Below are positions 4,239 to 18,983 of a stretch of DNA of 35,667 bases, one piece after another. The DNA is taken from UHGV virus genome UHGV-0093623. The stretch is one strand, 5' to 3'. The notes under the pieces were generated by a model that saw nothing but the letters and a program-made list of their open reading frames with translations, did no database searches and was not told the DNA's origin. How positions within the stretch are numbered: the stretch's first letter is position 1; every line of letters starts with the position of its first letter. The DNA comes from a virus. The position numbers were made by a program, and so were the translations under genes.

Positions 4239-4429
4239 GGACGCACCTCCACCGTAGTTACGTATTTAACCGGGCTACCTTTCATTGAGATGGTTTCACA
4301 CATCTCTGCCGCTTTCAGTTCCGCTGTTTTTCTGGATTTATAGCGACGGTGCCAGACAGATACATCCGTGCGAACTGATACATCGTTTCTGTATTCCGTA
4401 GTGGAGATGATGATTTCGTAACTAATCAT
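4235..4429 (-). CDS. hypothetical 64-aa protein
   Basis: ATGA overlaps on both sides. Confidence 0.4.
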   Translation of the reverse strand: MISYEIIISTTEYRNDVSVRTDVSVWHRRYKSRKTAELKAAEMCETISMKGSPVKYVTTVEVRP

Positions 4430-4977
4430 GGGCGAACCTCCTTGTCAGAACCATTCAGCCTGGAATCAACAAGTGCAGCGCCAAAAACAGCATCACCAAC
4501 ACGGTCGTACAGTTTGCTAGCCAGCGGAGATTCAACGGCCTTAAGCATTGGATAAAGCTGGCTTGTCCAGATTTGATGGATTTCACGCAAATGCAGGTAT
4601 ACGCCTCTGGCGTTTCGTGCGACAGCTGACATATCAACCGCGTCAGCACCAGATAAATTCTTCTCCATCTGGTTAAAGGCGTTGATGTATGCCTCTTTGA
4701 ACCGGGCTGCACGTTTGCCAGTAAAGCCCATAGCAAGGAACGCGAAGCCATCGCGGGTGATTTGATAGCAAGGTAGTTTGCGGCCTGTGCAATCGGTGTA
4801 ATCACTGGGCTGAAAATTCAGCTCAGTGAATTCAACAGAGCACTCAAGCGTCTGGATTTTTTGAATAACGTTTTTGTGCTGCTTGCAGAAATATTCGGCA
4901 ACGACCAAAGAAGAGGTAACAGCCTTCCCATGGATAACATCAATTTTAGGGTGAGTTTGGGTAGGGGTGGTTGCCAT
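4426..4977 (-). CDS. Rha-family phage regulatory protein (start at internal ATG 4977; the ORF stays open to 5274)
   Basis: Rha-like motifs GKAVTSSLVVAEYFCKQHKNVIQKI and YQITRDGFAFLAMGFTGKRAARFKEAY; GAGGA 7 nt upstream of ATG 4977; upstream 100 codons are low-complexity. Confidence 0.7.
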   Translation of the reverse strand: MATTPTQTHPKIDVIHGKAVTSSLVVAEYFCKQHKNVIQKIQTLECSVEFTELNFQPSDYTDCTGRKLPCYQITRDGFAFLAMGFTGKRAARFKEAYINAFNQMEKNLSGADAVDMSAVARNARGVYLHLREIHQIWTSQLYPMLKAVESPLASKLYDRVGDAVFGAALVDSRLNGSDKEVRP

Positions 4978-5296
4978 AGTGACATCCTCATGTGCGAATT
5001 TTGAAAACTCACCACATGGGACGCCAATCACAGAGGTGGTGAGACGTACAGGGTTGGCGTAACCGGTCGCACATGACCCCGGCGCATCTTTCGATGCCCC
5101 TGCACGCCCCACCATAATTTGGATGTGAGGAAACGTGCGCAAAAAAACCGCTGAAGCGCGGTTATGCGCATGTGCGAATTTCAGGACGCCAATCCCGGCA
5201 CCCGCTTTATAAGGTGCGGAGACAGTGTAACGTCCCGAAATTGCAGAATCAATATTTGGTCTTGAAATGATCATATAGCTGCTGATATCTTTAGAA

Positions 5297-5382
5297 CTGT
5301 TCTTGGATGTTTCGGAGCCGTTTTATGCGAAACAGCTCCCCGTTATTGATGTTGAGTGAGCCGGGTTACTCCCGGCTTTTTT
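5297..5382 (+). ncRNA. candidate short antisense RNA (OOP-like) ending at the terminator
   Basis: weak promoter-like TTGAAA-N18-TATCTT near 5262-5291 plus the plus-strand terminator; no plus-strand CDS. Confidence 0.2.
5359..5382 (+). terminator. intrinsic terminator oriented for plus-strand transcription (gccggg-ttact-cccggc + T7)
   Basis: GC stem followed by 7 T on the plus strand; on the minus strand the run precedes the stem, so it is not a minus-strand terminator. Confidence 0.55.
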
Positions 5383-6090
5383 TCACCGCTGCCAACCAAT
5401 AACCTGAAATAACCCCATTTTCGGGTGATACCAGCGAGTCCCTCGCGGTTCTGCTTCCTCCATAACCCGATAAAAAGCAGCCATAAACGGTTCCACAGCA
5501 ACAATTGCGCGACGTGACAACAATCCGTCCGGCGTCATGAACTCATGGGTGTCTGTAGGAATCTGATAGGCGTTCACCAGATTGCGGCATTTATCATCTG
5601 ACAAACCGGTTTTTGCTTTCAGTTGGCGATATCCGGCATAGCCCTCACGAATAGTGCCCTTTTTAATTTGCTCGACTGTTTCAGCAACGTGGCTGACTTT
5701 TTCTTCCACCTGAGTGATCCGTTTCTGCTGACGAACTGCTTCAAGAGCCATCGCGGCAACCATTTCGATTTCGCTCATTGGCTTACGGATCTGTTCTTCC
5801 AGTTCGCGCCAGCGATCTACCAGGCGAGCAGTGAATTCAGGACAGAGCTGTGCGACGACAATGATGCTGTCGCGCTTACCTTGTTCTCCTTCAAACAGGT
5901 AATGCTCATATTGAACTTTAAAACCTAAGTTATTGATTCTTTCGGAAACCTCAATTTGAGGAGACCGGACAACGCCACCTTTGGCTAATGTTTCAATAGT
6001 GCGTTTCACATTGTCATGACGTTTACCCACCAGCTCTGCGATCTCAACGCTGGTCATGGATGCTTTGCCGTTAAAAATTGCGGTGTTCAT
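5383..6090 (-). CDS. Rha-family phage regulatory protein
   Basis: 235 aa; N-terminal SVEIAELVGKRHDNVKRTIETL motif; AGGAGA RBS. Confidence 0.8.
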   Translation of the reverse strand: MNTAIFNGKASMTSVEIAELVGKRHDNVKRTIETLAKGGVVRSPQIEVSERINNLGFKVQYEHYLFEGEQGKRDSIIVVAQLCPEFTARLVDRWRELEEQIRKPMSEIEMVAAMALEAVRQQKRITQVEEKVSHVAETVEQIKKGTIREGYAGYRQLKAKTGLSDDKCRNLVNAYQIPTDTHEFMTPDGLLSRRAIVAVEPFMAAFYRVMEEAEPRGTRWYHPKMGLFQVIGWQR

Positions 6091-6314
6091 TGTTGGTCTC
6101 CTGTGGGCTTGTCATCTTCTGTATTCGCTAGACTTGGGTGTGTATATGGAATGCTCGGATCCAGATGACAAAGAATGGCAACATCCTCCGGAACACCTCG
6201 CGTTTTCCACTTTCCAACACCTTGACTGCCACGAGGCCTTCCTTTCTTTGGGAACCTGCGACCAATAGCGGCATTGGTTTTAAATTGAAATTTTAATATT
6301 TCATAAAGGGTCAT
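6087..6314 (-). CDS. hypothetical 75-aa ORF in the cro position
   Basis: ATG about 30 nt downstream of the predicted rightward promoter; stop overlaps the Rha ATG (ATGA); protein is Lys/Arg/Gly-rich with no obvious HTH. Confidence 0.3.
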   Translation of the reverse strand: MTLYEILKFQFKTNAAIGRRFPKKGRPRGSQGVGKWKTRGVPEDVAILCHLDPSIPYTHPSLANTEDDKPTGDQQ

Positions 6315-6330
6315 TCTTTAGTCTCACACC

Positions 6331-6418
6331 AGATACTTTGTTATCCAACGATGTTAACCGCGGGAATCCAAAGTATCAAGAAATTCTGTTACTTTAGTAT
6401 CAACAGCCATGAGAGGAG
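6331..6418. promoter_or_regulatory. divergent early promoter/operator region (OR-like)
   Basis: minus-strand TTGATA-N17-TAACAT (plus 6374-6379 and 6351-6356); three copies of a GTATCA-core motif (6332-6340 inverted, 6369-6377, 6396-6404); cI RBS GAGAGGAG at 6411-6418. Confidence 0.5.
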
Positions 6419-6425
6419 AAGAAAA

Positions 6426-7082
6426 ATGAAGTCTTTAGGTGAACGTCTCATCAACGCACGGCAAAAAGCTGGGTTAACACAAGATGCGTTGGCTAAAAAA
6501 GCTGGGATCACCAGAGTTGCAATCAGTAAAGCCGAGCAAGGCCTTACAAAAAGTTTCAACGGTGACACCCTTTTTAAAGTTGCAGCTGCACTGCGGTGTT
6601 CACCGCAGTGGCTTCAGAACGGAGATGAAAAAGATAAGCATTGGGAAAATAATGTTAAGAGCTGCCCACAGAGAGACACAGCACACTCTTACCCTGTAAT
6701 TAACTGGGTTCAGGCAGGATTATTCGCAACTTCTGGTGATGACTACAACATGTATGATCAGGATAATTGGAGGCATTCTGTAAAATACGCTGGTGAGAGG
6801 GGGTTCTGGCTGGAAGTGCACGGAGACTCAATGACTTCGCCCGTAGGAATAACATTTCCTGAAGGAATGTCGATCCTTGTCAACCCAGATAAAGAAGTTT
6901 TTTCAGGGTGTTACGTCATCGCCAGAAAAAAATCCACCAATGAAGCAACATTCAAAAAATATATTTCTGACATGGGAAAGGCGTTTCTAAAGCCCCTTAA
7001 TCCACAATATCCAATCATAGAAATGGACAATGATTGCGAAATAGTAGGTGTTGTGGTTGATGCCAGGTGGGATATTTTCTGA
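6426..7082 (+). CDS. CI-like prophage repressor (HTH_XRE + S24 LexA-like peptidase)
   Basis: HTH LTQDALAKKAGITRVAISKAEQG; C-terminal GDSM and downstream Lys (ARKK); start chosen at ATG 6426 with RBS. Confidence 0.85.
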   Translation: MKSLGERLINARQKAGLTQDALAKKAGITRVAISKAEQGLTKSFNGDTLFKVAAALRCSPQWLQNGDEKDKHWENNVKSCPQRDTAHSYPVINWVQAGLFATSGDDYNMYDQDNWRHSVKYAGERGFWLEVHGDSMTSPVGITFPEGMSILVNPDKEVFSGCYVIARKKSTNEATFKKYISDMGKAFLKPLNPQYPIIEMDNDCEIVGVVVDARWDIF

Positions 7083-7108
7083 CCAGACACAAAACACAAA
7101 AAGAAACC

Positions 7109-7181
7109 AAAGTATCAAAAATCACTTGCCACACCTTGATACCTTAGTTACCATAAAACAAAGTTCGTAACTGAGGTATCA
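7109..7181. promoter_or_regulatory. OL-like operator/promoter region downstream of cI
   Basis: GTATCAA at 7112-7118, inverted TTGATAC at 7136-7142, GGTATCA at 7175-7181; TTGCCA-N17-TACCAT at 7126-7154. Confidence 0.4.
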
Positions 7182-7185
7182 TCTC

Positions 7186-7689
7186 ATGATCAATAAAGCT
7201 ACAACTCTTGACTGTCTCGAAGAACTGAAAAACCTCGGCAGCCTCATTACACTAATAGCAAAAGCAACACCTGATGCTACGCTCTCTAGCGATATAGAGT
7301 CATGCGCAGGACTGGCATGGGATATGACAAATAGCATATCCAGAAAGCTATCGTCAGCAATGCTTTTACAGAACAAAAATTCTGCAATCAACAACCGTCT
7401 TCGCACCCAACGCGAAGCCTGCGGCTTAACAACCGCCGAACTCGCCAGGCTGCTCGATCTCGATGAAGAAATTATCATCCAGTGGGAGAGCGGAGAGTAT
7501 GAACCAACTATCAGTATGCTTATCCCACTGGCAAATATTCTTGGCTGCGATCCGATGTGGCTGTTAACTGGTGAGGTTACTCCTCCGGAGCAACCAAAAA
7601 GTGAGGAGCAGCAACACCATGACGCATCTCAACAAGTTTGCCCCTTATCTCGCGAAGCTCTTCTGCGGAAGAACCAATACCAATGGTGA
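7186..7689 (+). CDS. HTH_XRE-domain protein (167 aa), first gene of the leftward operon
   Basis: HTH segment LTTAELARLLDLDEEIIIQWESGEYEPTISMLIPLANILGCDPMWLLTGE; GAGGT RBS; true start could be an internal Met. Confidence 0.6.
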   Translation: MINKATTLDCLEELKNLGSLITLIAKATPDATLSSDIESCAGLAWDMTNSISRKLSSAMLLQNKNSAINNRLRTQREACGLTTAELARLLDLDEEIIIQWESGEYEPTISMLIPLANILGCDPMWLLTGEVTPPEQPKSEEQQHHDASQQVCPLSREALLRKNQYQW

Positions 7690-7817
7690 CATAATCGCCG
7701 CTTCGCCCTTCAAGGTACATGCGAACATTTTTATCAATCATTGCGGAAACAGTCTCAATATGAAAACACTTCTGAGACTCGCTATATAGCAGAACATATA
7801 AGTCAGCTGAGGAAGCC

Positions 7818-8183
7818 ATGAAAAAGTTCGAAAACATAACTGTTCTCCATGTTGATGACTTTGATTATACAAACCCGGAACTTCTCCCGGAGGTTGTAAA
7901 GGCAATAGATGTTGCCGATATAGTGATTAGAGAAAAGAGAATTGTCAAAAACAGGCTCGCATGCACTTCAGGAGCAATGACAGAAACAACCTCACAGCAA
8001 GATAATTACGAAGGCATTTGTCTGGAGCCTGATTCATTTGCGGTAAATGTTTATCATTTATTGCATGCAACACAGGTATTACATATGTCCAGTAATCACG
8101 AAACGAAAACACTCGGCAGCGAAATTCTGAGTTTTGCATGTGAGTATACAAAAGCTGCTGCCGAAAAAGAATTAGCGCAATAA
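7818..8183 (+). CDS. hypothetical 121-aa protein
   Basis: GAGGA 4 nt upstream of ATG. Confidence 0.6.
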   Translation: MKKFENITVLHVDDFDYTNPELLPEVVKAIDVADIVIREKRIVKNRLACTSGAMTETTSQQDNYEGICLEPDSFAVNVYHLLHATQVLHMSSNHETKTLGSEILSFACEYTKAAAEKELAQ

Positions 8184-8377
8184 CAACAAATATGCCCTGA
8201 ACGTTTATTGCGGTTTTATCGCCGGGGATTGTTACAACCTTAATCCACAGGAGGCTTTATTGTGACTTTTATAAAGAATATGGCATCACACAAGACCGCC
8301 TGCCTTATTGCACAATACGGTGAAAATTACATGCATATTGCCTGCTTATTTCTGCGTAAAGCATACGGGAGATAATA

Positions 8378-8578
8378 ATGCATCAGAAAACAGCAGAACA
8401 CGAACAAACCAGAGTATTGCTGACCATCAAAAACGGGAAAGTAATATTCATTCGCCATGTTCATGACGATGAACTTGTAGGAACTCTTTCAACATTCCTG
8501 TTTATTGCAGAAAGGGCAGGATATGACGTTATTGCACCAGCAGATGAAGATGAAGATGAAGATGAAGATGAGGAATAA
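8378..8578 (+). CDS. hypothetical 66-aa protein with poly-acidic C-terminus (DEDEDEDEE)
   Basis: GGGAGA RBS; 5 nt before the next gene. Confidence 0.55.
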   Translation: MHQKTAEHEQTRVLLTIKNGKVIFIRHVHDDELVGTLSTFLFIAERAGYDVIAPADEDEDEDEDEE

Positions 8579-8583
8579 ATATC

Positions 8584-9165
8584 ATGCAATACGATGAATT
8601 CCAGGCTGAAGCAACAGCCAATGGTATACGAACTGGCAGTATGACGATTGATTATCACGACGCCATACGTCGTCTGGATGCCGGAGAATTCGATACTCCT
8701 AATGTGCGAGGTTTACGTATCCTTCAGTGTCTGGCGCAAGCCGACGAAGCAGGATTACTGGGTAAACTTCCGGTTGAGATGAAGGTTGCTCAGTGGCGAT
8801 GGTTGTATGTGACGACATTCATCAACGAAGAAGAAGACAAGAACGGCACAATTGATATCCTGAATGAACACGGAACAACTGAACACGCCGTGGTATATAA
8901 CGGGATGTATGGGTTTATGACGATATATCCCGGCCCCATTCGATTTGCCTTACAACAGTATATTGAATGGAATTTAATTCAAAAATACGGCGAAGCTGAA
9001 GGAATGGGAAGAGCGCTGTTTCTTTATCAGAAAATGCTCACTACTTCCCCTGATAAAGGTTTCATTCTTTCAGATATGGGTCGAGAAGGGCTTGAAATCC
9101 TTCTGGATGAAATTATTAACGAAATGAATACTCATGGCATGCAATCCGAAACAGATATTAAGTAA
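8584..9165 (+). CDS. hypothetical 193-aa protein
   Basis: GAGGA RBS inside the upstream gene tail. Confidence 0.6.
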   Translation: MQYDEFQAEATANGIRTGSMTIDYHDAIRRLDAGEFDTPNVRGLRILQCLAQADEAGLLGKLPVEMKVAQWRWLYVTTFINEEEDKNGTIDILNEHGTTEHAVVYNGMYGFMTIYPGPIRFALQQYIEWNLIQKYGEAEGMGRALFLYQKMLTTSPDKGFILSDMGREGLEILLDEIINEMNTHGMQSETDIK

Positions 9166-9175
9166 AAGGGACCAC

Positions 9176-9424
9176 ATGACCGTTATCGAGTATATCCAGG
9201 AAAATCCAGATTGCAGTAGAGAAGATATATCCCTCGCACTTGGAAGAAGCGCAACTTCTATCAGTAATGAATTATCACGGTTATTGTGGAATGGGTTAAT
9301 AGTACGAACTGGAGAAAAAAACAAAATGATTCTGTACTGCGTAAACAATCTGCCGTTTGGATACAGCAATCCCCTAAGTGTTATGTTCAACCAGTTACTT
9401 AAACAGGTAAGAAATGGCAACTGA
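9176..9424 (+). CDS. hypothetical 82-aa protein, possible winged-helix DNA binding
   Basis: AAGGGA RBS 5 nt upstream of ATG 9176. Confidence 0.5.
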   Translation: MTVIEYIQENPDCSREDISLALGRSATSISNELSRLLWNGLIVRTGEKNKMILYCVNNLPFGYSNPLSVMFNQLLKQVRNGN

Positions 9425-9731
9425 CTCACAACTAACCATAGAAACGGCCCTGAATGTCGGCCTGGCGCTCCTTGGTTATTTTTACATCGTGTTCTGCAGC
9501 GGACGGTGGCTGTCGCTGTTGTTCCTGAAAAAATGGAATAAACGCCGTAAGCAGGATGAACGCCAGAAGGCAATGAATGCGTTTTCCGAAGCCTTCGGAA
9601 TTGACGGCATGGAACCAGGGGATCCAGCTCGCGCAATCAGCAGAGGGGGTGTAGTAATCCTTGTATATCGGAGTGAAGAGAAAAATGACGATCACAAAAC
9701 AACGAGTAGAAAAAATCATATATCGCCATGA
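9414..9731 (+). CDS. hypothetical single-pass membrane protein (105 aa)
   Basis: hydrophobic segment ALNVGLALLGYFYIVFCSGRWLSLLF; overlaps neighbours on both sides. Confidence 0.4.
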   Translation: MATDSQLTIETALNVGLALLGYFYIVFCSGRWLSLLFLKKWNKRRKQDERQKAMNAFSEAFGIDGMEPGDPARAISRGGVVILVYRSEEKNDDHKTTSRKNHISP

Positions 9732-9999
9732 AATGGGACTGAACAGCGATGTCACTGCCGAAGAGGTTTATGACCTGGCTGTACTGGCGCTGAATTTATC
9801 AAATATCGCAAACCTGAAGCGATACGAGCTTGATATGGATGGTTGCGACTCGTGCGGTCAGGATTGTGGCGCAGATATGACTGAAGATCCTGATGGTGAT
9901 TATGTCCTGTTTGATGACGTGGTTAAGTTGTTTGAATTTGATACAACCACTCAAAAGTTAGAAATCCCGGCAAAGGAGGCTGCCAGTGAGCAAGATTGA
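9685..9999 (+). CDS. hypothetical 104-aa acidic protein
   Basis: ATG 9685 preferred over the TTG at 9661. Confidence 0.5.
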   Translation: MTITKQRVEKIIYRHEMGLNSDVTAEEVYDLAVLALNLSNIANLKRYELDMDGCDSCGQDCGADMTEDPDGDYVLFDDVVKLFEFDTTTQKLEIPAKEAASEQD

Positions 10000-10168
10000 C
10001 TATCAGGCACTGCGCGAGGCGGCGGAACAGGCAACGCAAGATGAATGGGTAGCATATATTTGCCGGGTCATAACGGCATTTATCCTGCGCGCACGTCTGA
10101 GGGTAGGCATTGCGGATACTTTATTGACTGGCCTGGCGTCTGTCAGGGGCGGGAGAGCATCAACATGA
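9986..10168 (+). CDS. Ea22-like N-terminal module, truncated (60 aa)
   Basis: GTG start preceded by AAAGGAGG; N-terminus MSKIDYQALREAAEQA parallels the gene at 10668; stop overlaps the next ATG. Confidence 0.45.
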   Translation: MSKIDYQALREAAEQATQDEWVAYICRVITAFILRARLRVGIADTLLTGLASVRGGRAST

Positions 10169-10671
10169 GCATCAGAACCTACGCAGTGAATTGCAATGAC
10201 GCATGGCTAAACACCGAAGGTGATGACATCTCCGGCTCATACGTTAAGTACAAAGACCATCAGGAAGTGGTTGCCGCTCTTGAGGCCAAGTGCGCGGCGC
10301 TGGCAGCGGAGAATGCGGGAATAAAGTCTGCAATTCCAGAATCACGGGATATTGAAGATGACAATGACAATATGGATGACGTATCTCTCGCGGAAGACTT
10401 CGGGTTCAATCATGCAATAGAACGGATGAGGAGACAGATACCTGAAACGCCAACCACTGATGCTTTCCTGGCTGAAGTCCGGGCGCAGGGGGTGGATGCT
10501 GCTATAGAAGCTGCAAAAAATCTGGTGGCCCAAGAATATGAGTATAAGGATTTCAAAGCGGCGCAGAGTGATTGCTGTATGTACCCTGGTTCAGACCTGG
10601 TAGGGAAGGTTGAAATGACTGAGTGGTTAGTTGACTTTGCTGCCCAGCTTCGCAAAGGAGGCAACCAGTGA
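10165..10671 (+). CDS. hypothetical 168-aa acidic protein
   Basis: ATG 10165 with GGGAGAG upstream; ATGA overlap with the preceding ORF. Confidence 0.5.
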   Translation: MSIRTYAVNCNDAWLNTEGDDISGSYVKYKDHQEVVAALEAKCAALAAENAGIKSAIPESRDIEDDNDNMDDVSLAEDFGFNHAIERMRRQIPETPTTDAFLAEVRAQGVDAAIEAAKNLVAQEYEYKDFKAAQSDCCMYPGSDLVGKVEMTEWLVDFAAQLRKGGNQ

Positions 10672-11333
10672 GCGAAATTAATTACCAGGCACTGCGTGAG
10701 GTGGCGGAACGTGCAATTCCAGCAATGGAACGCCTGTTAATGTTGCCAGCTGATGATGACTTGTTAAGTGAACAGGAACTTAAAGATTACGGTGTGGATA
10801 TTGATGCGCTCAACGCCTTCAAATTTCTGACCGGACCAGAAACCGTGCTGGCACTGCTGGATGAACGGGAAAGAAACCTGCAATACATCAAAAGCCGCGA
10901 TCAGGAGAACGAGGATATTGCGCTAACGGTAGGGAAGCTGCGTGTTGAGCTGGAAGCAGCAGAGAACAACCTTATTGATAGTGAATGCCATGTTGCTGAA
11001 CTGGAAGAAGCGCTACGCGATAAGCAGGCGTTACTTGAAGCCTCAGAAAAGCGCATAGCAGAACTGGAAGCACGGGAAATAAAACCAGCCAAAGGCGAAG
11101 TTCTTGTCGTTGTATCTGGTTTTACTGGTTGCGGAAAAAGCGCCATTGCCGGGGAAATAGAAATCGCGATGAAGGCTATTGGTGTACCGGTTAAGTGGAC
11201 TAATGGCGATGCAGAAAAGCGCATGACTGGCGCTGACTGGCTGACAGCGATTGAGATGTACAAACCAACTGTGCGCATCGTGGAAGTTAATGTGCCACGC
11301 GCCGCTGGCATTCGCATCAAAGGAGGTGAGTAA
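10668..11333 (+). CDS. Ead/Ea22-like protein
   Basis: GTG start with AAAGGAGG RBS; N-terminus MSEINYQALREVAERA; TVLALLDERE motif; coiled-coil centre. Confidence 0.65.
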   Translation: MSEINYQALREVAERAIPAMERLLMLPADDDLLSEQELKDYGVDIDALNAFKFLTGPETVLALLDERERNLQYIKSRDQENEDIALTVGKLRVELEAAENNLIDSECHVAELEEALRDKQALLEASEKRIAELEAREIKPAKGEVLVVVSGFTGCGKSAIAGEIEIAMKAIGVPVKWTNGDAEKRMTGADWLTAIEMYKPTVRIVEVNVPRAAGIRIKGGE

Positions 11334-11509
11334 TGCGTGTGGCATGTATCGGCTTGTTACCGTACCCGACTCGTTTTTGGGCTTCTGCGCTAATTGCAAA
11401 GCCACATGTCCTGATGGCTGACAACATCATCCCGGCACCAAAGCGCCGCCATACCGGTATTGCATCGGCACGACGAGCAGCAAAGAGACGCAGGAGAGCA
11501 AAACGATGA
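11333..11509 (+). CDS. hypothetical 58-aa basic protein
   Basis: not in ORF track (under 60 aa); AGGAGG RBS 6 nt upstream; TAATG and ATGA overlaps with flanking genes. Confidence 0.4.
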   Translation: MRVACIGLLPYPTRFWASALIAKPHVLMADNIIPAPKRRHTGIASARRAAKRRRRAKR

Positions 11510-11697
11510 AAAACCGTAAAGCAAAGATTCTGTTAGTTCGTAGAAACGCTCCTGGCGTCTGGCAGTGGGTGAGACTCAGCAACCGACGGATGGGGTTAAT
11601 GAAACATTACGGGATGATGGATTGTGGTTTTTGCAAAAAGCCCAGCGCGGCGCAAAACCGCTGGAAAAACCACTGTCGCATTAATAAGGAAAACTGA
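11506..11697 (+). CDS. hypothetical 63-aa Cys/His-containing protein
   Basis: AGGAGA RBS; ATGA overlap. Confidence 0.5.
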   Translation: MKNRKAKILLVRRNAPGVWQWVRLSNRRMGLMKHYGMMDCGFCKKPSAAQNRWKNHCRINKEN

Positions 11698-11698
11698 T

Positions 11699-11962
11699 AT
11701 GGCAACTTTGACAAAAAAAGAACAGGCATGGTTGAACGAATTACAGGACGTTCTTGATCGCTGCCCATCACCGAAAAAAATTGGTTTTTACACCATTGGC
11801 GATAAAAGCATTTACCTGTATGACCTGCGCCGCATGGATGAAATCATGGAGGCTCTTGATAATCGTTCGTCAATGGATTGGTGTGTTGCTGTCCATGATA
11901 TGAATGCAGGGTTTGATGAAAAGATTTTGTTCCCCTCATCAGTTGAAAGCACTGCGGGTTAA
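11699..11962 (+). CDS. hypothetical 87-aa protein
   Basis: ATG 11699 with AAGGA upstream. Confidence 0.55.
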   Translation: MATLTKKEQAWLNELQDVLDRCPSPKKIGFYTIGDKSIYLYDLRRMDEIMEALDNRSSMDWCVAVHDMNAGFDEKILFPSSVESTAG

Positions 11963-11972
11963 GGAGTAACAC

Positions 11973-12140
11973 ATGACCACTATTACCAAAGAACGTATTG
12001 AATTGTTCATTAAAAACCCGCTTGAAAACGGGCTTACCCGTGGTGAACAAATGGAACTGGCACGGATTGCGCTGGCATCGCTGGAAGCAGAGCCGGTTGT
12101 GTTCTGGTTTGAAAAATATCAAGAAGGGGCTACGGCATGA
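11973..12140 (+). CDS. hypothetical 55-aa protein, paralogous at its N-terminus to the next gene
   Basis: not in ORF track; AAGGAG RBS 6 nt upstream; MTTITKERI vs MTTFTREQL; ATGA overlap with 12137. Confidence 0.5.
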
Positions 12141-12481
12141 CGACTTTTACCAGAGAGCAGTTAATAGCTCACGCAGAGGAGACTATTGAAGCACAGAGAC
12201 TGTGCATACCGGGCACAATCGACCATGACATCATCCGCACATATAAGATGGATATTGCTGTTCTGGAAATCGCACTGGTATCGCTGGCAGCAGAGCCAGC
12301 CGGTAAATTGCATGAATACAAACCAGTGGGATATCAGCGTCTGGTCGATGAGTTAACCATGCTGGTAAAGCAGTTAACCTGGCAACTGAGGAAAGCGAAG
12401 CCAGACTGCAAATTACCGGATAAGGCGATGAGTTATCTGGAGCGGAACGGACTGATAAGCGTGGAGGATATTTTACGATGA
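12137..12481 (+). CDS. hypothetical 114-aa protein
   Basis: ORF track; ATGA overlap. Confidence 0.6.
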
Positions 12482-12561
12482 CCTGGCCTGAAGCATTAAC
12501 AACGGTAGGAATTGCGATGGCGGTGGCGCTGGTGGTGTATTCGATTTGCCGCTGGGGATAA
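12478..12561 (+). CDS. candidate 27-aa hydrophobic peptide ([27 protein letters not shown])
   Basis: ATGA overlap with the upstream stop; GGAGGA 9 nt upstream; single predicted TM helix. Confidence 0.3.
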
Positions 12562-12659
12562 AAACGGTTTGCGGGAAAAGGAGAGTTAAGTAGAATTGCA
12601 GCGGGTGCTTGAGGCTATCTGTCTCAGGCATGAACACCAAAAGGCAGATAGAGAAAAGC

Positions 12660-14510
12660 CCCAGTTAACATTACGCGTCCTGCAAGACGCTTAACATTAA
12701 TCTGAGGCCAATTTCATGCTAGACACATGTAGGTTAGCCTCTTACGTGCCGAAAGGCACGGAGAAGCAGGCTATTGTTAACACCAAGCTGTAATGTCCCC
12801 TTTGAACCATTCTAAAATGTCCCCAGACAATTCTCTGGGGGATTTTTCATGATCAAAGAGACTGTTACGATGAGTCATAAGGAACTCCACCGACTTCAGA
12901 TTATTCAGGAACAAGCTGCGGCACGCATTGGCATTTCTATTCGGCAGGTTAAACGTCTGGTGCAACGGTATAGAAATGAAGGGCCTTCTGCTCTGGTTTC
13001 CCACCGACGTGGAAAGCGTCCTAATAATTCCTTTTCTACTGAATTCAGAGCAACAGTAATTTCACTCCTCAAAGGCCGTTACGCTGATTTTGGACCTACG
13101 TTTGCGTGCGAAAAATTGCGCGAGATACACGGTTTATCTTTATCCGTTGAAACTCTCAGAAAGTGGATGATAGAAGAGGGGTTATGGCGTGAACGCCGTC
13201 GTAAAATTGCCCGTATATATCAACGCCGCATGCGACGACCATCTTACGGTGAACTGATCCAGATTGATGGCTCACCTCATGACTGGTTTGAAAATCGAGG
13301 CCCCAGATGTACACTGATCGTTTTCATTGATGATGCCACCAGTGCGTTGATGGCGTTGCGTTTTGTGCCTGCTGAAACAACCCGGGCTTACATGGAAACC
13401 CTCCGGGGTTACCTTAATGATCATGGCGTACCGCTCGCTCTCTACTCTGATAGACACAGTATATTCAGGGTAAATAACCCAGAGCGGGAAGGTGAGCTGA
13501 CCCAGTTCACTCGTGCGATAAAGACACTGGGCATCGAGCCAATCCATGCCAACAGCCCGCAGGCAAAAGGGCGGGTAGAGCGCGCCAATCAGACACTACA
13601 GGACAGGCTGGTCAAAGAAATGCGGCTTCAGAATATCAGTGATATTGAAACAGCAAATGCATGGTTGCCGACCTTTATTGAAGCCTATAACAACCGGTTC
13701 GCTACGTCGCCTCGTACTACTGATAATGCTCATCTTGATGTGCACCATTCTGAAGAGGAACTGGGTTATATCTTCAGCCTACAGGCGAAGCGCGTTCTGT
13801 CTAAAAATCTCACTTTCCAGTACAAAAGCAGTGCGTTTCAGGTACGCAGTGAGGGCCGGGGATATCGACTTAGGCATTCGGTTGTTACTGTATGCGAGAA
13901 CTTTGACGGTGAAATTAACGTTCTGTATGACGGGAAAGCGCTGGGCTGGGAAAAGTATGTTGATGGCCCGGAGCCTATACCACTGGATGATGAAAAGAGT
14001 GTCCATGAACGAGTGGATAATGCCCGTATTGATTTACGCTCAAAATACTATGTTAAACCTAAAGCTGACCATCCCTGGCTTACGCGCCGAACGCAAAGTC
14101 ATCAGCAAGTTAAGCCCCCGAAGTTACCTAAAAAGAAGCCTGATCCCGATAAAAAAGATTGAAACCAAGATCGATTCGGTTGAGTGCATATCCATTCATA
14201 GGGTAGATTCTTAAGTCGCGTTTCTGGTGTTCATTTTCGGGTGGTTTGTTACTTGTTTTACCGGGGATATGCCAGAAACGCGCTGAGTCAGTCTGGGCGG
14301 TGCGCGTAATGAGGCGTTATGGTAAATAGCCTATGCTAATGTCCGCTAAGAGCAAGAAGCGGAAGTTGGCAGTTTTGTGGACTGTCCCCACAAAAGTGAC
14401 TACAGAAATAGTTGCAATTCATAATTGATCATGGGTTGTCAGTTAAACTCGTGGCGATTTAAATAGACTAATTGGGAGTGCGTCCATTACTTATATCTTG
14501 TAATGTTAAC
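12660..14510. mobile_element. insertion sequence (approximate extent) carrying the DDE transposase
   Basis: candidate 12-bp terminal inverted repeat AGTTAACATTAC near 12663-12674 and its reverse complement near 14499-14510; boundaries not verified. Confidence 0.25.
12849..14162 (+). CDS. DDE-type transposase (N-terminal HTH + integrase-core fold), IS481/ISNCY-like
   Basis: 437 aa; N-terminal HTH region, central acidic residues in IQIDGSPHD and FIDDATS; family assignment tentative. Confidence 0.8.
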   Translation: MIKETVTMSHKELHRLQIIQEQAAARIGISIRQVKRLVQRYRNEGPSALVSHRRGKRPNNSFSTEFRATVISLLKGRYADFGPTFACEKLREIHGLSLSVETLRKWMIEEGLWRERRRKIARIYQRRMRRPSYGELIQIDGSPHDWFENRGPRCTLIVFIDDATSALMALRFVPAETTRAYMETLRGYLNDHGVPLALYSDRHSIFRVNNPEREGELTQFTRAIKTLGIEPIHANSPQAKGRVERANQTLQDRLVKEMRLQNISDIETANAWLPTFIEAYNNRFATSPRTTDNAHLDVHHSEEELGYIFSLQAKRVLSKNLTFQYKSSAFQVRSEGRGYRLRHSVVTVCENFDGEINVLYDGKALGWEKYVDGPEPIPLDDEKSVHERVDNARIDLRSKYYVKPKADHPWLTRRTQSHQQVKPPKLPKKKPDPDKKD

Positions 14511-14598
14511 TATCAGAAATGATACAAAGATAATATGTCTTTAAAGAAAAGGCTGATGGCGAAAAGTGGCCCGATGAGGGCCACAATACGGCTGTCAC

Positions 14599-14931
14599 TT
14601 AGACGTAAATATCAATGGTGCCAGCGGTATTTGTATCGTCTTTTTTCTCTTCTTTTTTATCAGGCTGAACTGTCGCGTCTTCATTCTTTTTCTCTGCCTG
14701 CTGCCTTAACAACTGCTCCAGTTGAGCCCAGAGGCTTTCAATTTGCTTCTGTACCAATGCAGCCATTTCTTTTTTCTGCTGTGTCGTCATCCCCTCTTCC
14801 GATGAGATTTTCCCAAGCTTTTCAGTCAGCACCTGAATTTGTCTTGTGATTTTGGCTATTTCTGATGTTCCTTCCGGGGCGGAGTTGTTTGAAATAACGG
14901 TTGAGGTATTTCCCTGAATTGTGACAGACAT
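14599..14931 (-). CDS. flxA: FlxA-like protein (110 aa)
   Basis: protein recognised as Qin-prophage FlxA-like; preceded by a consensus sigma-28 promoter. Confidence 0.8.
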   Translation of the reverse strand: MSVTIQGNTSTVISNNSAPEGTSEIAKITRQIQVLTEKLGKISSEEGMTTQQKKEMAALVQKQIESLWAQLEQLLRQQAEKKNEDATVQPDKKEEKKDDTNTAGTIDIYV

Positions 14932-14954
14932 AGATTTCTCCTTTTAAAAAAGCA

Positions 14955-14981
14955 CTATCGGCATGCACAAAAAAATCTTTA
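14955..14981 (-). promoter_or_regulatory. sigma-28 (FliA) class 3 promoter TAAAGATT-N11-GCCGATAG
   Basis: reverse complement of plus 14955-14981 matches the TAAAGTTT-N11-GCCGATAA consensus; sits about 25 nt upstream of the flxA ATG. Confidence 0.7.
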
Positions 14982-15133
14982 ATCGTATTTCTTGTGTCAT
15001 TAATTGTTTGATGTTCAGATTGTTTTCCTCGCGGGCTGGCGCGCCTCAGAAAGTAAAGCTTGTTGACAGGGGTAAACGTTCGGCAATAATTTTCTGCCGC
15101 ATGCGGGTGTTGCATAAAACGTGTTACGTTCCT

Positions 15134-15439
15134 TTATCGACAGGTCAGGTCACCGCTCACCCGCCGACGAGAAAGCAACACTGACATGCTAAAGCAAAAA
15201 ATAGATGAATAAGTTGAGTTGTGCATATGTAGCCTGACCGTCACAAAGTATATGGTGTCTGTACCAGTAAGATGATGGCCGGACTCTTTAAAAACGAGCT
15301 GACCTGCACAATACAGGATGGACTTAGCAATGGCTGCTCCTGGCACAAAGCGGACAGTGATCACCGTTCTTACGACTACTTTCTGACTTCCTTCGTGACT
15401 TGCCCTAAGCATGTTGTAGTGCGATACTTGTAATGACAT
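15134..15439 (-). CDS. hypothetical 101-aa protein (YdfV-like position)
   Basis: ORF track; position between flxA and relB as in Qin; no motif. Confidence 0.35.
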   Translation of the reverse strand: MSLQVSHYNMLRASHEGSQKVVVRTVITVRFVPGAAIAKSILYCAGQLVFKESGHHLTGTDTIYFVTVRLHMHNSTYSSIFCFSMSVLLSRRRVSGDLTCR

Positions 15440-15452
15440 TTGTAATTACAAG
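15427..15452 (+). promoter_or_regulatory. relBE operator/promoter inverted repeats
   Basis: cttgtaatgacatttgtaattacaag directly upstream of the relB ATG. Confidence 0.7.
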
Positions 15453-15463
15453 AGGTGTAAGAC

Positions 15464-15703
15464 ATGGGTAGCATTAACCTGCGTATTGACGATGAACTTA
15501 AAGCGCGTTCTTACGCCGCGCTTGAAAAAATGGGTGTAACTCCTTCTGAAGCGCTTCGTCTCATGCTCGAGTATATCGCTGACAATGAACGCTTGCCGTT
15601 CAAACAGACACTCCTGAGTGATGAAGATGCTGAACTTGTGGAGATAGTGAAAGAACGGCTTCGTAATCCTAAGCCAGTACGTGTGACGCTGGATGAACTC
15701 TGA
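15464..15703 (+). CDS. relB: RelB antitoxin
   Basis: 79 aa, MGSINLRIDDELKARSYA... recognised as E. coli RelB. Confidence 0.95.
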   Translation: MGSINLRIDDELKARSYAALEKMGVTPSEALRLMLEYIADNERLPFKQTLLSDEDAELVEIVKERLRNPKPVRVTLDEL

Positions 15704-15990
15704 TGGCGTATTTTCTGGATTTTGACGAGCGGGCACTAAAGGAATGGCGAAAGCTGGGCTCGACGGTACGTGAACAGTTGAAAAAGAAGCTGGTTGAAGT
15801 ACTTGAGTCACCCCGGATTGAAGCAAACAAGCTCCGTGGTATGCCTGATTGTTACAAGATTAAGCTCCGGTCTTCAGGCTATCGCCTTGTATACCAGGTT
15901 ATAGACGAGAAAGTTGTCGTTTTCGTGATTTCTGTTGGGAAAAGAGAACGCTCGGAAGTATATAGCGAGGCGGTCAAACGCATTCTCTGA
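15703..15990 (+). CDS. relE: RelE mRNA interferase toxin
   Basis: 95 aa, MAYFLDFDERALKEWRKLG... recognised as E. coli RelE; 1-nt overlap with relB. Confidence 0.95.
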   Translation: MAYFLDFDERALKEWRKLGSTVREQLKKKLVEVLESPRIEANKLRGMPDCYKIKLRSSGYRLVYQVIDEKVVVFVISVGKRERSEVYSEAVKRIL

Positions 15991-16061
15991 ACCAAAGCAT
16001 GACATCTCTGTTTCGCACCGAAGGTGACACTTCTGCTTTGCGTTGACAGGAGAAGCAGGCT

Positions 16062-16217
16062 ATGAAGCAGCAAAAGGCGATGTTAATCGCCCTGATCGTC
16101 ATCTGTTTAACCGTCATAGTGACGGCACTGGTAACGAGGAAAGACCTCTGCGAGGTACGAATCCGAACCGGCCAGACGGAGGTCGCTGTCTTCACAGCTT
16201 ACGAACCTGAGGAGTAA
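16062..16217 (+). CDS. hokD: Hok-family small membrane toxin HokD (RelF)
   Basis: 51 aa MKQQKAMLIALIVICLTVIVTALVTRKDLCEVRIRTGQTEVAVFTAYEPEE; not in ORF track (under 60 aa). Confidence 0.9.
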   Translation: MKQQKAMLIALIVICLTVIVTALVTRKDLCEVRIRTGQTEVAVFTAYEPEE

Positions 16218-16285
16218 GAGACCCGGCGGGGGAGAAATCCCTCGCCACCTCTGATGTGGCAGGCATCCTCAACGCACCCGCACTT

Positions 16286-16312
16286 AACCCGCTTCGGCGG
16301 GTTTTTGTTTTT
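16286..16312 (+). terminator. intrinsic terminator after hokD
   Basis: aacccgc-ttcg-gcgggtt followed by a T-run. Confidence 0.6.
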
Positions 16313-16433
16313 ATTTTCAACGCGTTTGAAGTTCTGGACGGTGCCGGAATAGAATCAAAAATACTTAAGTAGCGCGCAGGGATAAGAGGGATGGTCCCTT
16401 AAAGGGGAGAGCTAATTATCCGGAAGGATTCTG

Positions 16434-16685
16434 ATGATGAACATCGAAGAACTGCGTAAAATTTTTTGTGAAGATGGCCTCTATGCTGTGTGCGTTGAAA
16501 ATGGAAATCTTGTTAGTCATTACCGCATTATGTGTTTGCGAAAGAATGGGGCTGCGTTAATTAATTTTGTGGATGCTCGGGTCACGGACGGATTTATCTT
16601 GCGCGAAGGTGAGTTTGTCACTTCATTACAGGCATTGAAAGAGATCGGAATAAAAGCTGGCTTTTCTGCTTTTTCAGGAGAATAA
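16434..16685 (+). CDS. rem: Rem-like small protein (83 aa)
   Basis: position and length as Qin rem; weak recollection of sequence. Confidence 0.6.
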   Translation: MMNIEELRKIFCEDGLYAVCVENGNLVSHYRIMCLRKNGAALINFVDARVTDGFILREGEFVTSLQALKEIGIKAGFSAFSGE

Positions 16686-16751
16686 ACTCATCTACAATCT
16701 TGCGCGGGGCTGAACTCCCGCTGAGTAACACCGTGCCACCGGAGAAAACCG

Positions 16752-17030
16752 ATGGCACGCAACGCAAAATATTACAATTCTGATAATTCGCCCGTTCTTG
16801 CCTGCACGCACGGGCGGTATTCTCACGCATTCAAGTCTGAATGGTTCCGGCACCCTCCATGCACTGCAGAACAGGCCGAATGGCTGATTCATTCTTACCG
16901 CAGGCGCGGGTTCGAGGTTAAGAAAGCTCTCAGTCTCGACTATCGGCACTGGATAATCTCTGTCAGGCTGCCTTATTCCGAACGCCCACCACGTGCGTCC
17001 CGCACTTTCCAGCAACGGATCTGGAGGTAA
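16752..17030 (+). CDS. hypothetical 92-aa protein
   Basis: GGAGAAAA RBS; stop abuts the ydfU-like GTG start. Confidence 0.45.
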   Translation: MARNAKYYNSDNSPVLACTHGRYSHAFKSEWFRHPPCTAEQAEWLIHSYRRRGFEVKKALSLDYRHWIISVRLPYSERPPRASRTFQQRIWR

Positions 17031-17031
17031 C

Positions 17032-18081
17032 GTGCGGGTATTACTTAGACCTGTTCTGGTGCCTGAGCTTGGGCTGGTGGTCCTTAAGCCGGGCCGTGAA
17101 TCCATACAGATATTTCATAATCCTCGAGTGCTGGTGGAACCGGAACCAAAAAGCATGCGTAATCTGCCATCCGGAGTCGTTCCTGCCGTTCGCCAGCCGC
17201 TGGCGGAAGACAAAACATTGCTGCCGTTTTTTAGTAACGAACGGGTGATTCGTGCTGCTGGCGGCGTTGGCGCATTGTCCGACTGGCTATTACGTCATGT
17301 TACATCCTGCCAGTGGCCTAATGGCGATTACCATCACACTGAAACAGTCATTCACCGTTATGGTACCGGCGCAATGGTGTTGTGCTGGCACTGCGACAAC
17401 CAACTGCGTGACCAGACATCGGAATCACTGGAGCTGCTTGCTCAACAAAATCTGACAGCATGGGTGATTGACGTCATCCGTCACGCAATAAGCGGTACGC
17501 AGGAGCGGGAATTATCTTTGGCTGAATTATCCTGGTGGGCGGTCTGCAATCAGGTGGTGGATGCACTACCTGAGGCTGTATCGCGTCGTTCGCTGGGATT
17601 ACCAGCGGAAAAAATCTGCTCGGTGTACCGCGAAAGCGACATCGTACCGGGAGAGCAGACCGCCACCAGCATATTGAAACAACGCACAAAAAATCTTGCA
17701 CCGTTGCCTTACGCCCACCAGCAACAAAAATCACCACAGGAAAAGACGGTGGTAAGCATCACCGTTGATCCAGAGTCTCCGGAATCTTTCATGAAGCTGC
17801 CTAAACGTCGCCGCTGGGTTAAGGAGAAATACACACGTTGGGTTAAGACACAGCCGTGTGCTTGCTGCGGTATGCCAGCCGACGATCCGCATCATCTGAT
17901 TGGTCACGGGCAGGGCGGAATGGGAACAAAAGCACATGATCTCTTTGTGTTGCCTTTGTGCAGAAAGCATCACAACGAGCTGCATACGGATACAGTGGCA
18001 TTTGAAGATAAGTATGGCTCCCAACTGGAGCTGATATTTCGTTTTATCGATCGCGCGCTGGCAATTGGCGTACTGGCGTAA
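17032..18081 (+). CDS. ydfU: DUF968-type protein, YdfU-like (349 aa)
   Basis: GTG start with GGAGGT RBS gives 349 aa; Cys/His-rich C-terminus CACCGMPADDPHHLIGHG...CRKHHNELH. Confidence 0.7.
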   Translation: MRVLLRPVLVPELGLVVLKPGRESIQIFHNPRVLVEPEPKSMRNLPSGVVPAVRQPLAEDKTLLPFFSNERVIRAAGGVGALSDWLLRHVTSCQWPNGDYHHTETVIHRYGTGAMVLCWHCDNQLRDQTSESLELLAQQNLTAWVIDVIRHAISGTQERELSLAELSWWAVCNQVVDALPEAVSRRSLGLPAEKICSVYRESDIVPGEQTATSILKQRTKNLAPLPYAHQQQKSPQEKTVVSITVDPESPESFMKLPKRRRWVKEKYTRWVKTQPCACCGMPADDPHHLIGHGQGGMGTKAHDLFVLPLCRKHHNELHTDTVAFEDKYGSQLELIFRFIDRALAIGVLA

Positions 18082-18094
18082 GTGGAGAACGAGC

Positions 18095-18847
18095 ATGAAC
18101 CTTGAAGCCTTACCAAAATATTACTCCCCAAAATCTCCAAAATTGAGCGATGACGCTCCAGCGACAGGCACCGGTTGTTTAACAATTACGGATGTAATGG
18201 CAGCGCAGGGGATGGTGCAGTCGAAAGCACCACTTGGGTTGGCCTTATTTCTGGCAAAAGTTGGTGTTCAGGACCCTCAGTTTGCGATTGAAGGCCTGCT
18301 AAATTACGCGATGGCACTGAATAACCCGACATTGAACAAATTGAGTGAAGAAATCCGGTTACAGATTATTCCTTACCTCGTGAGTTTTGCCTTTGCTGAT
18401 TACTCCAGGTCTGCGGCAAGTAAGGCTCGCTGTGAGCATTGTTCAGGTACGGGATTTTATAATGTATTGCGCGAAGTGGTGAAACACTACAGACGCGGGG
18501 AATCTGTAATCAAGGAAGAATGGGTGAAGGAACTATGTCAGCATTGCCATGGTAAGGGCGAAGCCAGCACAGCGTGCAGAGGGTGTAAGGGTAAAGGGAT
18601 TGTTCTGGATGAAAAAAGAACCCGGTTTCATGGCGTACCGGTATATAAGATTTGTGGGCGTTGTAATGGAAACCGGTTTAGTCGTTTACCGACCACGCTG
18701 GCACGACGTCATGTCCAGAAGCTGGTACCAGACCTGACCGATTATCAGTGGTATAAGGGGTATGCGGACGTCATTGGTAAACTGGTAACAAAGTGCTGGC
18801 AGGAAGAAGCATACGCGGAAGCGCAATTGAGGAAGGTGACGAGATAA
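18095..18847 (+). CDS. quuQ: late-gene antiterminator Q-like (250 aa)
   Basis: Cys-rich zinc-binding region CEHCSGTG...CQHCHGKGE...CRGCKGKG...CGRCNGN; position before the lysis genes. Confidence 0.8.
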   Translation: MNLEALPKYYSPKSPKLSDDAPATGTGCLTITDVMAAQGMVQSKAPLGLALFLAKVGVQDPQFAIEGLLNYAMALNNPTLNKLSEEIRLQIIPYLVSFAFADYSRSAASKARCEHCSGTGFYNVLREVVKHYRRGESVIKEEWVKELCQHCHGKGEASTACRGCKGKGIVLDEKRTRFHGVPVYKICGRCNGNRFSRLPTTLARRHVQKLVPDLTDYQWYKGYADVIGKLVTKCWQEEAYAEAQLRKVTR

Positions 18848-18878
18848 ATGATTTTTGCTGAAGATGGCGACATGATGT

Positions 18879-18907
18879 TTGCATTTTTCAAAAAATATGG
18901 ATAAAAT
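18879..18907 (+). promoter_or_regulatory. candidate late promoter (PR'-like) TTGCAT-N17-TAAAAT
   Basis: sigma-70-like hexamers about 30 nt downstream of the Q stop. Confidence 0.45.
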
Positions 18908-18952
18908 TTTTTCAACGATGGGCTTTGTATACCCGACGTTAAGAAAAAGTAG

Positions 18953-18983
18953 AAAACCCGCTGATGAGCGGGTTTTGTGCTTT
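18953..18983 (+). terminator. intrinsic terminator (tR'-like)
   Basis: aaaacccgc-tgatga-gcgggtttt then gtgcttt. Confidence 0.55.

Follow-up and report, generated by a model that had tools for sequence, protein, structure and literature searches.

A predicted 27-residue membrane peptide ends a train of small genes in an accessory early region of lambdoid prophages

The exo-xis/ea region of lambdoid phages, which comprises orf60a, orf63, orf61, orf73, ea22 and ea8.5 in lambda and eaA-eaI in P22, is a series of short same-strand genes that leads from the early functions to xis-int. Its genes are non-essential for growth and can influence the lysis-lysogeny decision (PMC7093339, PMC6213356, PMC3824215). 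According to the literature, the region influences both lysogenisation and prophage induction, and this matters for the release of Shiga toxin (Stx). Here, we analyze a train of six small genes on the plus strand at positions 11333-12561 of the virus genome UHGV-0093623, given as one stretch of 35,667 nucleotides (nt) (hereafter the window), and focus on the last of them, an open reading frame (ORF) of 27 codons at 12478-12561. The train resembles the exo-xis/ea region in that it consists of short same-strand genes on the way from the early functions to xis-int. Furthermore, two Ead/Ea22-like genes with the Pfam domain PF13935 lie directly upstream of it, and its protein of 55 amino acids (aa) shares 86% identity with the N-terminal part of P22 EaA. 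In contrast to the exo-xis/ea region, the block formed by the train is also found at a nin-type position, and the 58-, 63-, 87- and 114-aa proteins of the train show no sequence match to the exo-xis proteins with known structures (Orf63, Ea8.5 and the Ea22 C-terminal domain). The study of Ea22 (PMC7093339) mentions neither the word 'transmembrane' nor an ORF downstream of ea22.

Three kinds of described small proteins can be compared with the 27-aa product. Small inner-membrane proteins of less than 50 aa, such as KdpF, AcrZ, MgtS, PmrR and CydX, are of the same size class, form a single hydrophobic helix and are routinely missed by annotation. Bacterial membrane proteins of this size typically act by binding larger membrane proteins (for a review, see PMC12648545). 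The best match of the 27-aa peptide is the KdpF model TIGR02115, at an E-value of 0.12 and 12.5 bits against a cutoff of 26.85, which indicates no sequence relationship, and the 27-aa gene differs from genes of the KdpF/AcrZ type in that it is phage-borne and the coupled last cistron of an operon. Hok/Gef products are, like the 27-aa product, small single-span hydrophobic peptides encoded on lambdoid prophages, and the 27-aa gene adjoins hok/sok in the window, in 933W and in MCJCHV-1. Lambda Kil and the Rac protein KilR share with it that they are short and encoded in an early operon that the lysogen keeps silent.

The 27-aa peptide has a grand average of hydropathy of +1.13. A hydrophobic core of 19 residues (residues 6-24, mean Kyte-Doolittle hydropathy 2.16) is flanked by Trp at positions 3 and 26, and E5 and R25 are the sole charges. 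With one hydrophobic segment of bilayer length and a size well within the 50 aa that bound the class, the peptide is predicted to be a small single-span membrane protein. The family consensus reads M-[TSN]-W-P-[ED]-A-[FLI]-x-x-x-G-x-[AV]-x-A-x-A-[LF]-x-x-[YF]-S-I-C-R-W-G. A tblastn search recovers the ORF from 95 phage records, including 933W, VT2-Sakai, Min27, ArgO145 and phi467, at 96% to 59% aa identity. Our set of 201 copies, assembled from a degenerate-pattern scan of IMG/VR and from loci fetched via the upstream gene, comprises 58 different nucleotide sequences, which encode 35 different peptides of 27 aa each. The 84-nt ORF is moreover present in 1631 of 5426 complete E. coli genomes (~30%), where it occupies 3105 places with up to seven per genome; 163 of these places are on plasmids, behind DUF551 genes. 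Plasmid copies are found, for example, in NZ_CP063155.1 at 69295-69378 (96 kb) and in NZ_CP191571.1 (102 kb), and some of these plasmids may, judged by their size, be phage-plasmids. The taxonomic range of the family as given here is drawn from phage, IMG/VR and E. coli collections.

Annotation of the ORF is absent from the 11 phage records (933W, Min27 and ArgO145 among them) and the three RefSeq prophage copies that were inspected, and a few GenBank genomes do annotate it, as 'hypothetical' or 'prophage protein'. In the annotation table of the E. coli K-12 Rac prophage no named small protein stands at the equivalent position, the Rac sequence itself not having been scanned for the peptide. 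The 27-aa gene is widespread, well conserved and usually unannotated, which amounts to an annotation gap. It is present in Stx phages and is not surprising in kind; it is a new, unnamed family within a known kind, that of small membrane proteins with one span that phages carry and annotation misses. Clusters at 90% identity that appeared to link the peptide with DUF551 proteins as fusions proved to be artefactual chains through partial ORFs.

By its pattern of variation, the 27-aa ORF very likely represents a genuine, conserved gene. Its length is constant at 27 codons across lineages with 59-96% aa and 68-85% nucleotide identity, and the lineages found by tblastn at 59-78% identity are likewise 27 aa long. 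The ratio of nonsynonymous to synonymous polymorphism (pN/pS) in frame is 0.44 for eight tblastn-ascertained sequences and 0.48 when pattern-fixed codons are removed, and the two remaining forward frames give 0.91 and 1.59. The 27-codon frame is thus under purifying selection. Between the window and PhiR12_4, the differences at the first, second and third codon positions number 5, 4 and 15, so that third positions dominate. Replacements are conservative, hydrophobic for hydrophobic, and the substituted residue pairs have a mean BLOSUM62 score of +0.41 in the 27-aa frame vs. -0.48 in the antisense frame. One copy (L060) carries a 6-nt duplication that is in frame. The initial annotation of this DNA had proposed the peptide gene and named a frame that is not conserved in homologous regions as an outcome that would speak against it; the constant length and the in-frame pN/pS of 0.44-0.48 uphold the proposal on this point.

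Moreover, the start signals of the 27-aa gene are conserved together with its position behind another gene. A Shine-Dalgarno sequence (SD) is present as a 5-mer in 38 of 41 distinct upstream contexts and as at least a 4-mer in all 41. The upstream stop codon overlaps or abuts the 27-aa start in 181 of the 191 copies with enough flanking sequence, and the overlap, as ATGA or TGATG, persists although 91 different proteins are encoded upstream. In the window, the last codons of the 114-aa gene carry the SD for the 27-aa gene, and the upstream ends ...VEDILR and ...PPQEVNQ, each directly followed by the stop codon, likewise contain it. As the SD lies within the C-terminal codons of the upstream gene, it constrains the last codons of this gene and appears to travel with them. 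Unrelated upstream C-termini (...QEVNQ, ...VEDILR and ...GVEVK before the stop) all encode a GGAGG-type SD, with the example of the window at 12458-12477.

The upstream partners are diverse. About two-thirds of the 181 overlapping or abutting copies follow a protein with a shared EaA-type N-module, and the further architectures include 121-aa DUF551 proteins without the N-module and a 131-aa Cys-rich/coiled-coil protein in 933W-type phages; in phi467 the upstream gene encodes a coiled-coil protein. One and the same peptide variant follows both LISVEDILR-type and DUF551-type genes. On the other side, homology stops exactly at the 27-aa stop codon. The only E. coli genome that covers most of the region has a match that ends at 12561, and at least eight unrelated contexts follow the stop among the copies, including hok/sok, DUF4222-xis-int, other genes and several hairpin-plus-T-run sequences, which resemble intrinsic terminators. 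The 27-aa gene thus behaves as an autonomous module of an SD and 27 codons that is spliced behind many genes of the Ea22, EaA and DUF551 types. For the annotation of small ORFs it may serve as a clean test case, recognizable in comparisons by an SD within the gene before it, an invariant length and a stop codon at which the module ends.

Loci of Klebsiella, Edwardsiella and Salmonella that contain a homologue of the 87-aa gene hold no recognizable copy of the 27-aa peptide. In an Edwardsiella hoshinae prophage (L219, 5468-5563), a hydrophobic ORF of 31 aa with an SD, MKPDHYIALARLLKAAFLLHCFPFLLALLWR, takes the corresponding place as the last one before a xis-like gene; it has no sequence similarity to the 27-aa family. 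In some phages, a second small hydrophobic ORF with its own strong SD directly follows the 27-aa ORF, for example one of 34 aa, MSDDISLAMEGALAVIAVVGVYCLVVFLMDRLGN, in the IMG/VR genome UViG_2690316115_000011 (L097, 10510-10615). Small membrane ORFs seem to cluster at this end of the operon.

Regarding the genomic context, the order Ea22, Ea22, 58, 63, 87, 55, 114, 27 recurs before xis-int in PhiR49_2 and BEC1-S17-ESBL-09, and the 87/55/114/27 part recurs at the nin-type position in MCJCHV-1. In some prophages the block sits in the leftward early operon before DUF4222-xis-int and in others in the nin-type region, from the replication genes to Q. The region is a mosaic accessory block of early genes in a lambdoid prophage and belongs to the 'ea / exo-xis' kind. 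On the plus strand between 9500 and 13000, no promoter-like site was found and no convincing terminator inside the train, and the genes of the block appear to share one transcript and to be coupled in translation. In either position the 27-aa gene closes an early accessory operon, and its product would be expected to appear soon after induction or infection.

On balance, we consider it probable that an ea-type accessory block ends here in a genuine 27-codon gene for a small membrane protein, and that this protein is a modulator rather than a pore-forming poison. Ribosomes leaving the upstream gene would reinitiate at the overlapping ATGA, and the product would insert as a single helix into the inner membrane. 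The positive-inside rule would place its acidic MxWP(E/D)A end on the periplasmic side and the conserved C-terminal Y-S-I-C-R-W-G at the cytoplasmic interface. The peptide would then most likely bind and modulate a host or phage membrane protein in early lytic development, as is the case for other bacterial proteins of less than 50 aa. If a membrane target of this kind exists, the exo-xis/ea region would gain a tractable factor of 27 residues.

Several points weigh against this reading of the locus. The 120 pattern-derived loci were chosen for an intact ORF, so that intactness among them is circular. Among the 80 loci chosen via the upstream protein, about seven copies are broken, by a 1-nt deletion in codon 2 (four loci), by a W3stop change that spares the upstream gene (L031), by a lost stop codon or by a frameshift, and the gene is therefore dispensable. 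The antisense frame, which shares the wobble positions, also has a low pN/pS of 0.37, and the assignment of the strand hence rests on start, stop and SD, on the module boundary and on conservation at the level of residues. We rejected an antisense ORF at 12473-12640 as a candidate: it is open in most variants, as expected from the shared wobble positions, but its start, length and context are inconsistent and the substitutions in it are non-conservative. The proposed membrane topology follows from a rule of thumb. A permutation test of the helical moment detected no conserved helix face (p = 0.37), and the conservation pattern therefore does not support a specific helix-helix interface. Finally, no expression, localization or phenotype data on the peptide were found in the literature searched, and the peptide string matches neither a searchable paper nor the supplements of a translatome paper on enterohaemorrhagic E. 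coli.

A more specific version of the modulator reading is tentative, and we regard it as unlikely as it stands. Here, the 27-aa product would be a dedicated membrane effector of the lambdoid phage pool of E. coli, Shigella and Salmonella, Stx phages included, carried as a portable cassette of an SD plus 27 codons. The effector would target a specific host inner-membrane protein, with a protease, a transporter or a division component as candidates, and bias the lysis-lysogeny decision, induction or superinfection exclusion. If true, it would affect the efficiency of induction, and hence the release of Stx, and would be an unrecognized player in the exo-xis/ea region.

Alternatively, the 27-aa peptide could be a toxin that damages the membrane or blocks division when the early operon is derepressed, with a function like that of Hok and TisB or of Kil. 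The peptide is small, very hydrophobic and single-span, and in ~40% of the copies collected here hok/sok follows directly downstream. Lambdoid phages typically place their host-killing functions in the early operon that is silent in the lysogen, which is also the home of the 27-aa gene. However, no toxin family in Pfam, NCBIfam or PADLOC matches it; a Pfam scan at E ≤ 1 yields only DUF883_C with 14.5 bits against a cutoff of 27, and NCBIfam and PADLOC return nothing relevant. The peptide has half the length of Hok and no Pfam match. The gene has no mok-type leader ORF, sok antisense RNA or fold-back leader and no promoter of its own. In line with this, the promoter search at 9500-13000 on the plus strand, Rfam and RNA folding (z = +1.1) did not reveal the promoter, structured 5' leader and antisense RNA of a type I architecture, and the sok match that Rfam gives from 12603 onward belongs to the neighboring locus. 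The 27-aa gene would instead be translated by coupling in an operon, often without hok nearby. This association is optional, since elsewhere DUF4222-xis-int, terminators or other genes follow. The peptide has a net charge of zero and no charged or amphipathic tail, and genomes tolerate up to seven copies.

The likeness to Kil fares no better. Kil-type inhibitors such as Kil and KilR are soluble cytoplasmic proteins and not transmembrane peptides, whereas the 27-aa product is almost wholly a transmembrane segment. KilR of Rac is annotated as an inhibitor of FtsZ. The peptide has no family match in Pfam, which presumably includes a model of lambda Kil; a direct comparison with KilR was not made. 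As far as its sequence tells, the peptide shares none of the tested features that define Kil or type I toxins such as Hok/Gef, Ldr, TisB, Ibs and ShoB, and we consider a toxin function unlikely. The initial annotation had called the last ORF a single-span hydrophobic peptide reminiscent of small membrane toxins or Kil-like peptides. The first half of this description agrees with the conserved frame and the hydrophobic core, and the likeness to toxins is backed by no test.

It is less likely still that the peptide anchors the upstream Ea22, EaA or DUF551 protein in the membrane or serves it as a small subunit, supplied in fixed proportion by coupling. The overlap or abutment in 181 of 191 copies and the EaA-type N-module in front of about two-thirds of them would fit such a pairing. 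Yet the 91 distinct upstream proteins include unrelated architectures, an identical peptide variant is paired with different upstream proteins, and what the junction conserves is a stretch of nucleotides bearing the SD and not a protein domain.

We consider it very unlikely that translation of the ORF matters in itself and not its product, with the ribosome relayed to the next gene or protecting the transcript against Rho. The coupling is conserved, and in loci with DUF4222 downstream the peptide stop is followed after 5 nt by the next ATG, as would suit a relay. However, the residues themselves are under selection, the ORF has a fixed length of 27 codons, and in many phages a terminator-like hairpin or a convergent gene directly follows the ORF, which leaves nothing to relay to. 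Hardly credible, finally, is that the ORF is no gene at all and is conserved for a role of the nucleic acid itself, such as a linker in recombination, an upstream hok promoter element or a structured RNA: its 3' end is a recurrent recombination joint and the hok leader begins 42 nt downstream, but variation is codon-periodic with conservative replacements, the ORF also occurs without hok, its RNA fold is no more stable than that of shuffled sequence (z = +1.1), Rfam has no match within 12478-12561, and the antisense ORF lacks a consistent start or length.

The remaining genes of the train and their junctions agree with the favored reading of an ea-type accessory block. Upstream, an Ead/Ea22-like gene at 10045-10671 on the plus strand (PF13935, E = 2.4e-13, 51.3 bits) has a stop codon that overlaps the GTG start of a second Ead/Ea22-like gene of 221 aa at 10668-11333, also on the plus strand (PF13935, E = 5.4e-33, 114.9 bits; phrog_250). 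The TAA stop of the latter shares one base with the ATG of the 58-aa gene (11333-11509), which results in the junction TAATG with a 1-nt overlap. All six genes of the train are on the plus strand. The 63-aa gene (11506-11697) follows with an ATGA overlap, the 87-aa gene (11699-11962) after a spacer of 1 nt, the 55-aa gene (11973-12140) after a spacer of 10 nt, the 114-aa gene (12137-12481) with an ATGA overlap and the 27-aa gene as last cistron with an ATGA overlap onto the 114-aa stop. The ATG of the 87-aa gene is at 11699, and reading from 11700 meets stop codons. Each of the six starts is preceded by an SD 7-10 nt upstream, and the upstream sequences are, in order, aaaggaggtgagtaATG, caggagagcaaaacgATG, taaggaaaactgatATG, taaggagtaacacATG, gaaggggctacggcATG and gtggaggatattttacgATG; the SD of the 58-aa gene is AGGAGGT, 7 nt upstream, and that of the 55-aa gene is AAGGAG. 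These data support the view of the train as a set of small genes coupled in translation.

The initial annotation had described every start from 11333 to 12561 as overlapping or abutting the previous stop. The ORFs, junctions and SDs are as it described them, with the small qualification that four of the six junctions overlap or abut and the other two are the short spacers of 1 and 10 nt. It had also added two ORFs below a 60-aa cutoff with strong ribosome-binding sites, and both are real: the 58-aa ORF corresponds to phrog_13831 and WP_000797289.1 and the 55-aa ORF to phrog_3323 and WP_000207997.1.

The 58-, 63-, 87-, 55- and 114-aa proteins each match a PHROG family at full or near-full length. 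RefSeq copies of the block label all five genes 'hypothetical protein', and these larger ORFs of the train are routine entries of the phage catalogues without an assigned function. The six proteins of the train give nothing above threshold in Pfam, NCBIfam and PADLOC; PF13935 reaches its gathering score in none of the six and only in the two genes upstream of the train. The 58-, 63-, 87- and 114-aa proteins, when compared with all PDB chains (phmmer, E ≤ 10), yield only chance matches. The match of the 58-aa ORF to phrog_13831 is full-length (E = 2e-41), and RefSeq lists the ORF as a coding sequence of 177 nt. Its product is hydrophobic in the N-terminal half and ends in an Arg/Lys-rich tail, ARRAAKRRRRAKR, an arginine-rich stretch that resembles arginine-rich RNA-binding motifs. 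The ORF is present in 67 phage records (tblastn), 933W/Sakai-type phages among them, in which query residues 1-43 align over a span of 108 nt vs. 129 nt. Both spans are multiples of three, which is consistent with a length difference in frame, the alignment itself not having been viewed. The 63-aa gene encodes a basic protein with the Cys/His residues CGFC...HC (phrog_1380, E = 4e-38; RefSeq homolog WP_000797279.1).

The 87-aa protein (phrog_1714, E = 6e-51) has full-length homologs in Escherichia, Salmonella, Klebsiella, Enterobacter, Edwardsiella, Pectobacterium and Tatumella and is, judged by these homologs, a stand-alone domain conserved across Enterobacterales. An AlphaFold2 model of it has a mean predicted local distance difference test score of 86.6 and the order alpha-beta-beta-alpha-alpha-beta. 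A Foldseek search of the model against the PDB finds no match at E ≤ 0.001, the best one having an E-value of 1.1 and a template modeling score of 0.22. Given a confident model without a structural neighbor in the PDB, the protein may represent a new small fold.

The 55-aa and 114-aa proteins are mosaic. The 55-aa ORF matches phrog_3323 (E = 1e-19) and also phrog_60, and its identity to P22 eaA (tblastn) is confined to residues 1-44, the remaining 11 residues being unrelated. By this alignment, the gene is a stand-alone copy of the P22 EaA-type N-terminal module with 11 unrelated residues appended. The 114-aa gene (phrog_660, E = 8e-43; RefSeq WP_000206826.1) consists of a diverged EaA/Ea22-type N-module joined to a different C-module. 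Its protein has 238 homologs, and all those with a named source organism are from Enterobacteriaceae; the C- and N-modules are mosaic among them and the set is shallow. BLASTP aligns the 55-aa and 114-aa proteins over their first 41-54 residues with 33% identity (E = 1e-5), and phrog_60, 660, 3323 and 5117 are matched by both. A natural recombinant of 101 aa (P0066) combines the 55-aa N-module with the 114-aa C-module, joined at a hinge ...IALASL(A/E)AEP. Since BLASTP, the PHROG profiles and this fusion all point to a shared N-module, the earlier description of the 55-aa protein as an N-terminal paralog of its 114-aa neighbor is right; more precisely, both carry a mosaic EaA/Ea22-type leader module, which is weak in the 114-aa protein. 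The hinge looks like a recurrent recombination point of the mosaic EaA/Ea22/DUF551 family. Two fusions of the 55- and 114-aa proteins (P0036 and P0037) and the sole fusion of the 114- and 27-aa proteins (P0046) are rare frameshift products.

Downstream of the train and outside it, within 12562-12848, lies a hok/sok type I locus, which the initial annotation did not mention. A complete 5' regulatory leader of the hokD/hokW type at 12603-12775 on the plus strand begins 42 nt after the 27-aa stop and matches the full Rfam model RF01794 'sok' with 110.5 bits (E = 9e-26). When aligned with two intact genes, hokD of MCJCHV-1 and hokW of 933W, the window agrees with both up to ...GCAGGCTAT, also given as ...GGAGAAGCAGGCTAT, and diverges thereafter, which splits the hok start codon at 12774/12775. 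An ISNCY-family transposase gene of 437 aa follows at 12849-14162 on the plus strand, as seen in the ORF listing, and the identical insertion is annotated in Qin-like prophages. Since identity extends up to the hok start and an ISNCY element comes next, the insertion lies inside the hok start codon, and the hok toxin gene is, as judged from this alignment, inactivated by it. The identical interrupted hok locus occurs in Qin-like prophages of many E. coli strains.

The two best genomic matches of the window abut at 12556-12561. Positions 4000-12561 match the pL-type early region of BEC1-S17-ESBL-09, where the train runs into DUF4222-xis-int, and positions 12556-20000 match a Qin-type region with ISNCY, ydfW, relBE, hokD, ydfU and Q. 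By these matches, the window is a chimeric prophage with a pL-type early/ea region on the left, a Qin-type nin/Q/lysis region on the right and the joint at the 27-aa stop. Recombination between resident prophages via the shared 87/55/114/27 block is probably the simplest explanation of the chimera, and this block seems to serve as a bridge for recombination from one prophage to another. The stretch 11684-12700 is 99.9% identical to the nin-type copy in many genomes of extraintestinal pathogenic E. coli.

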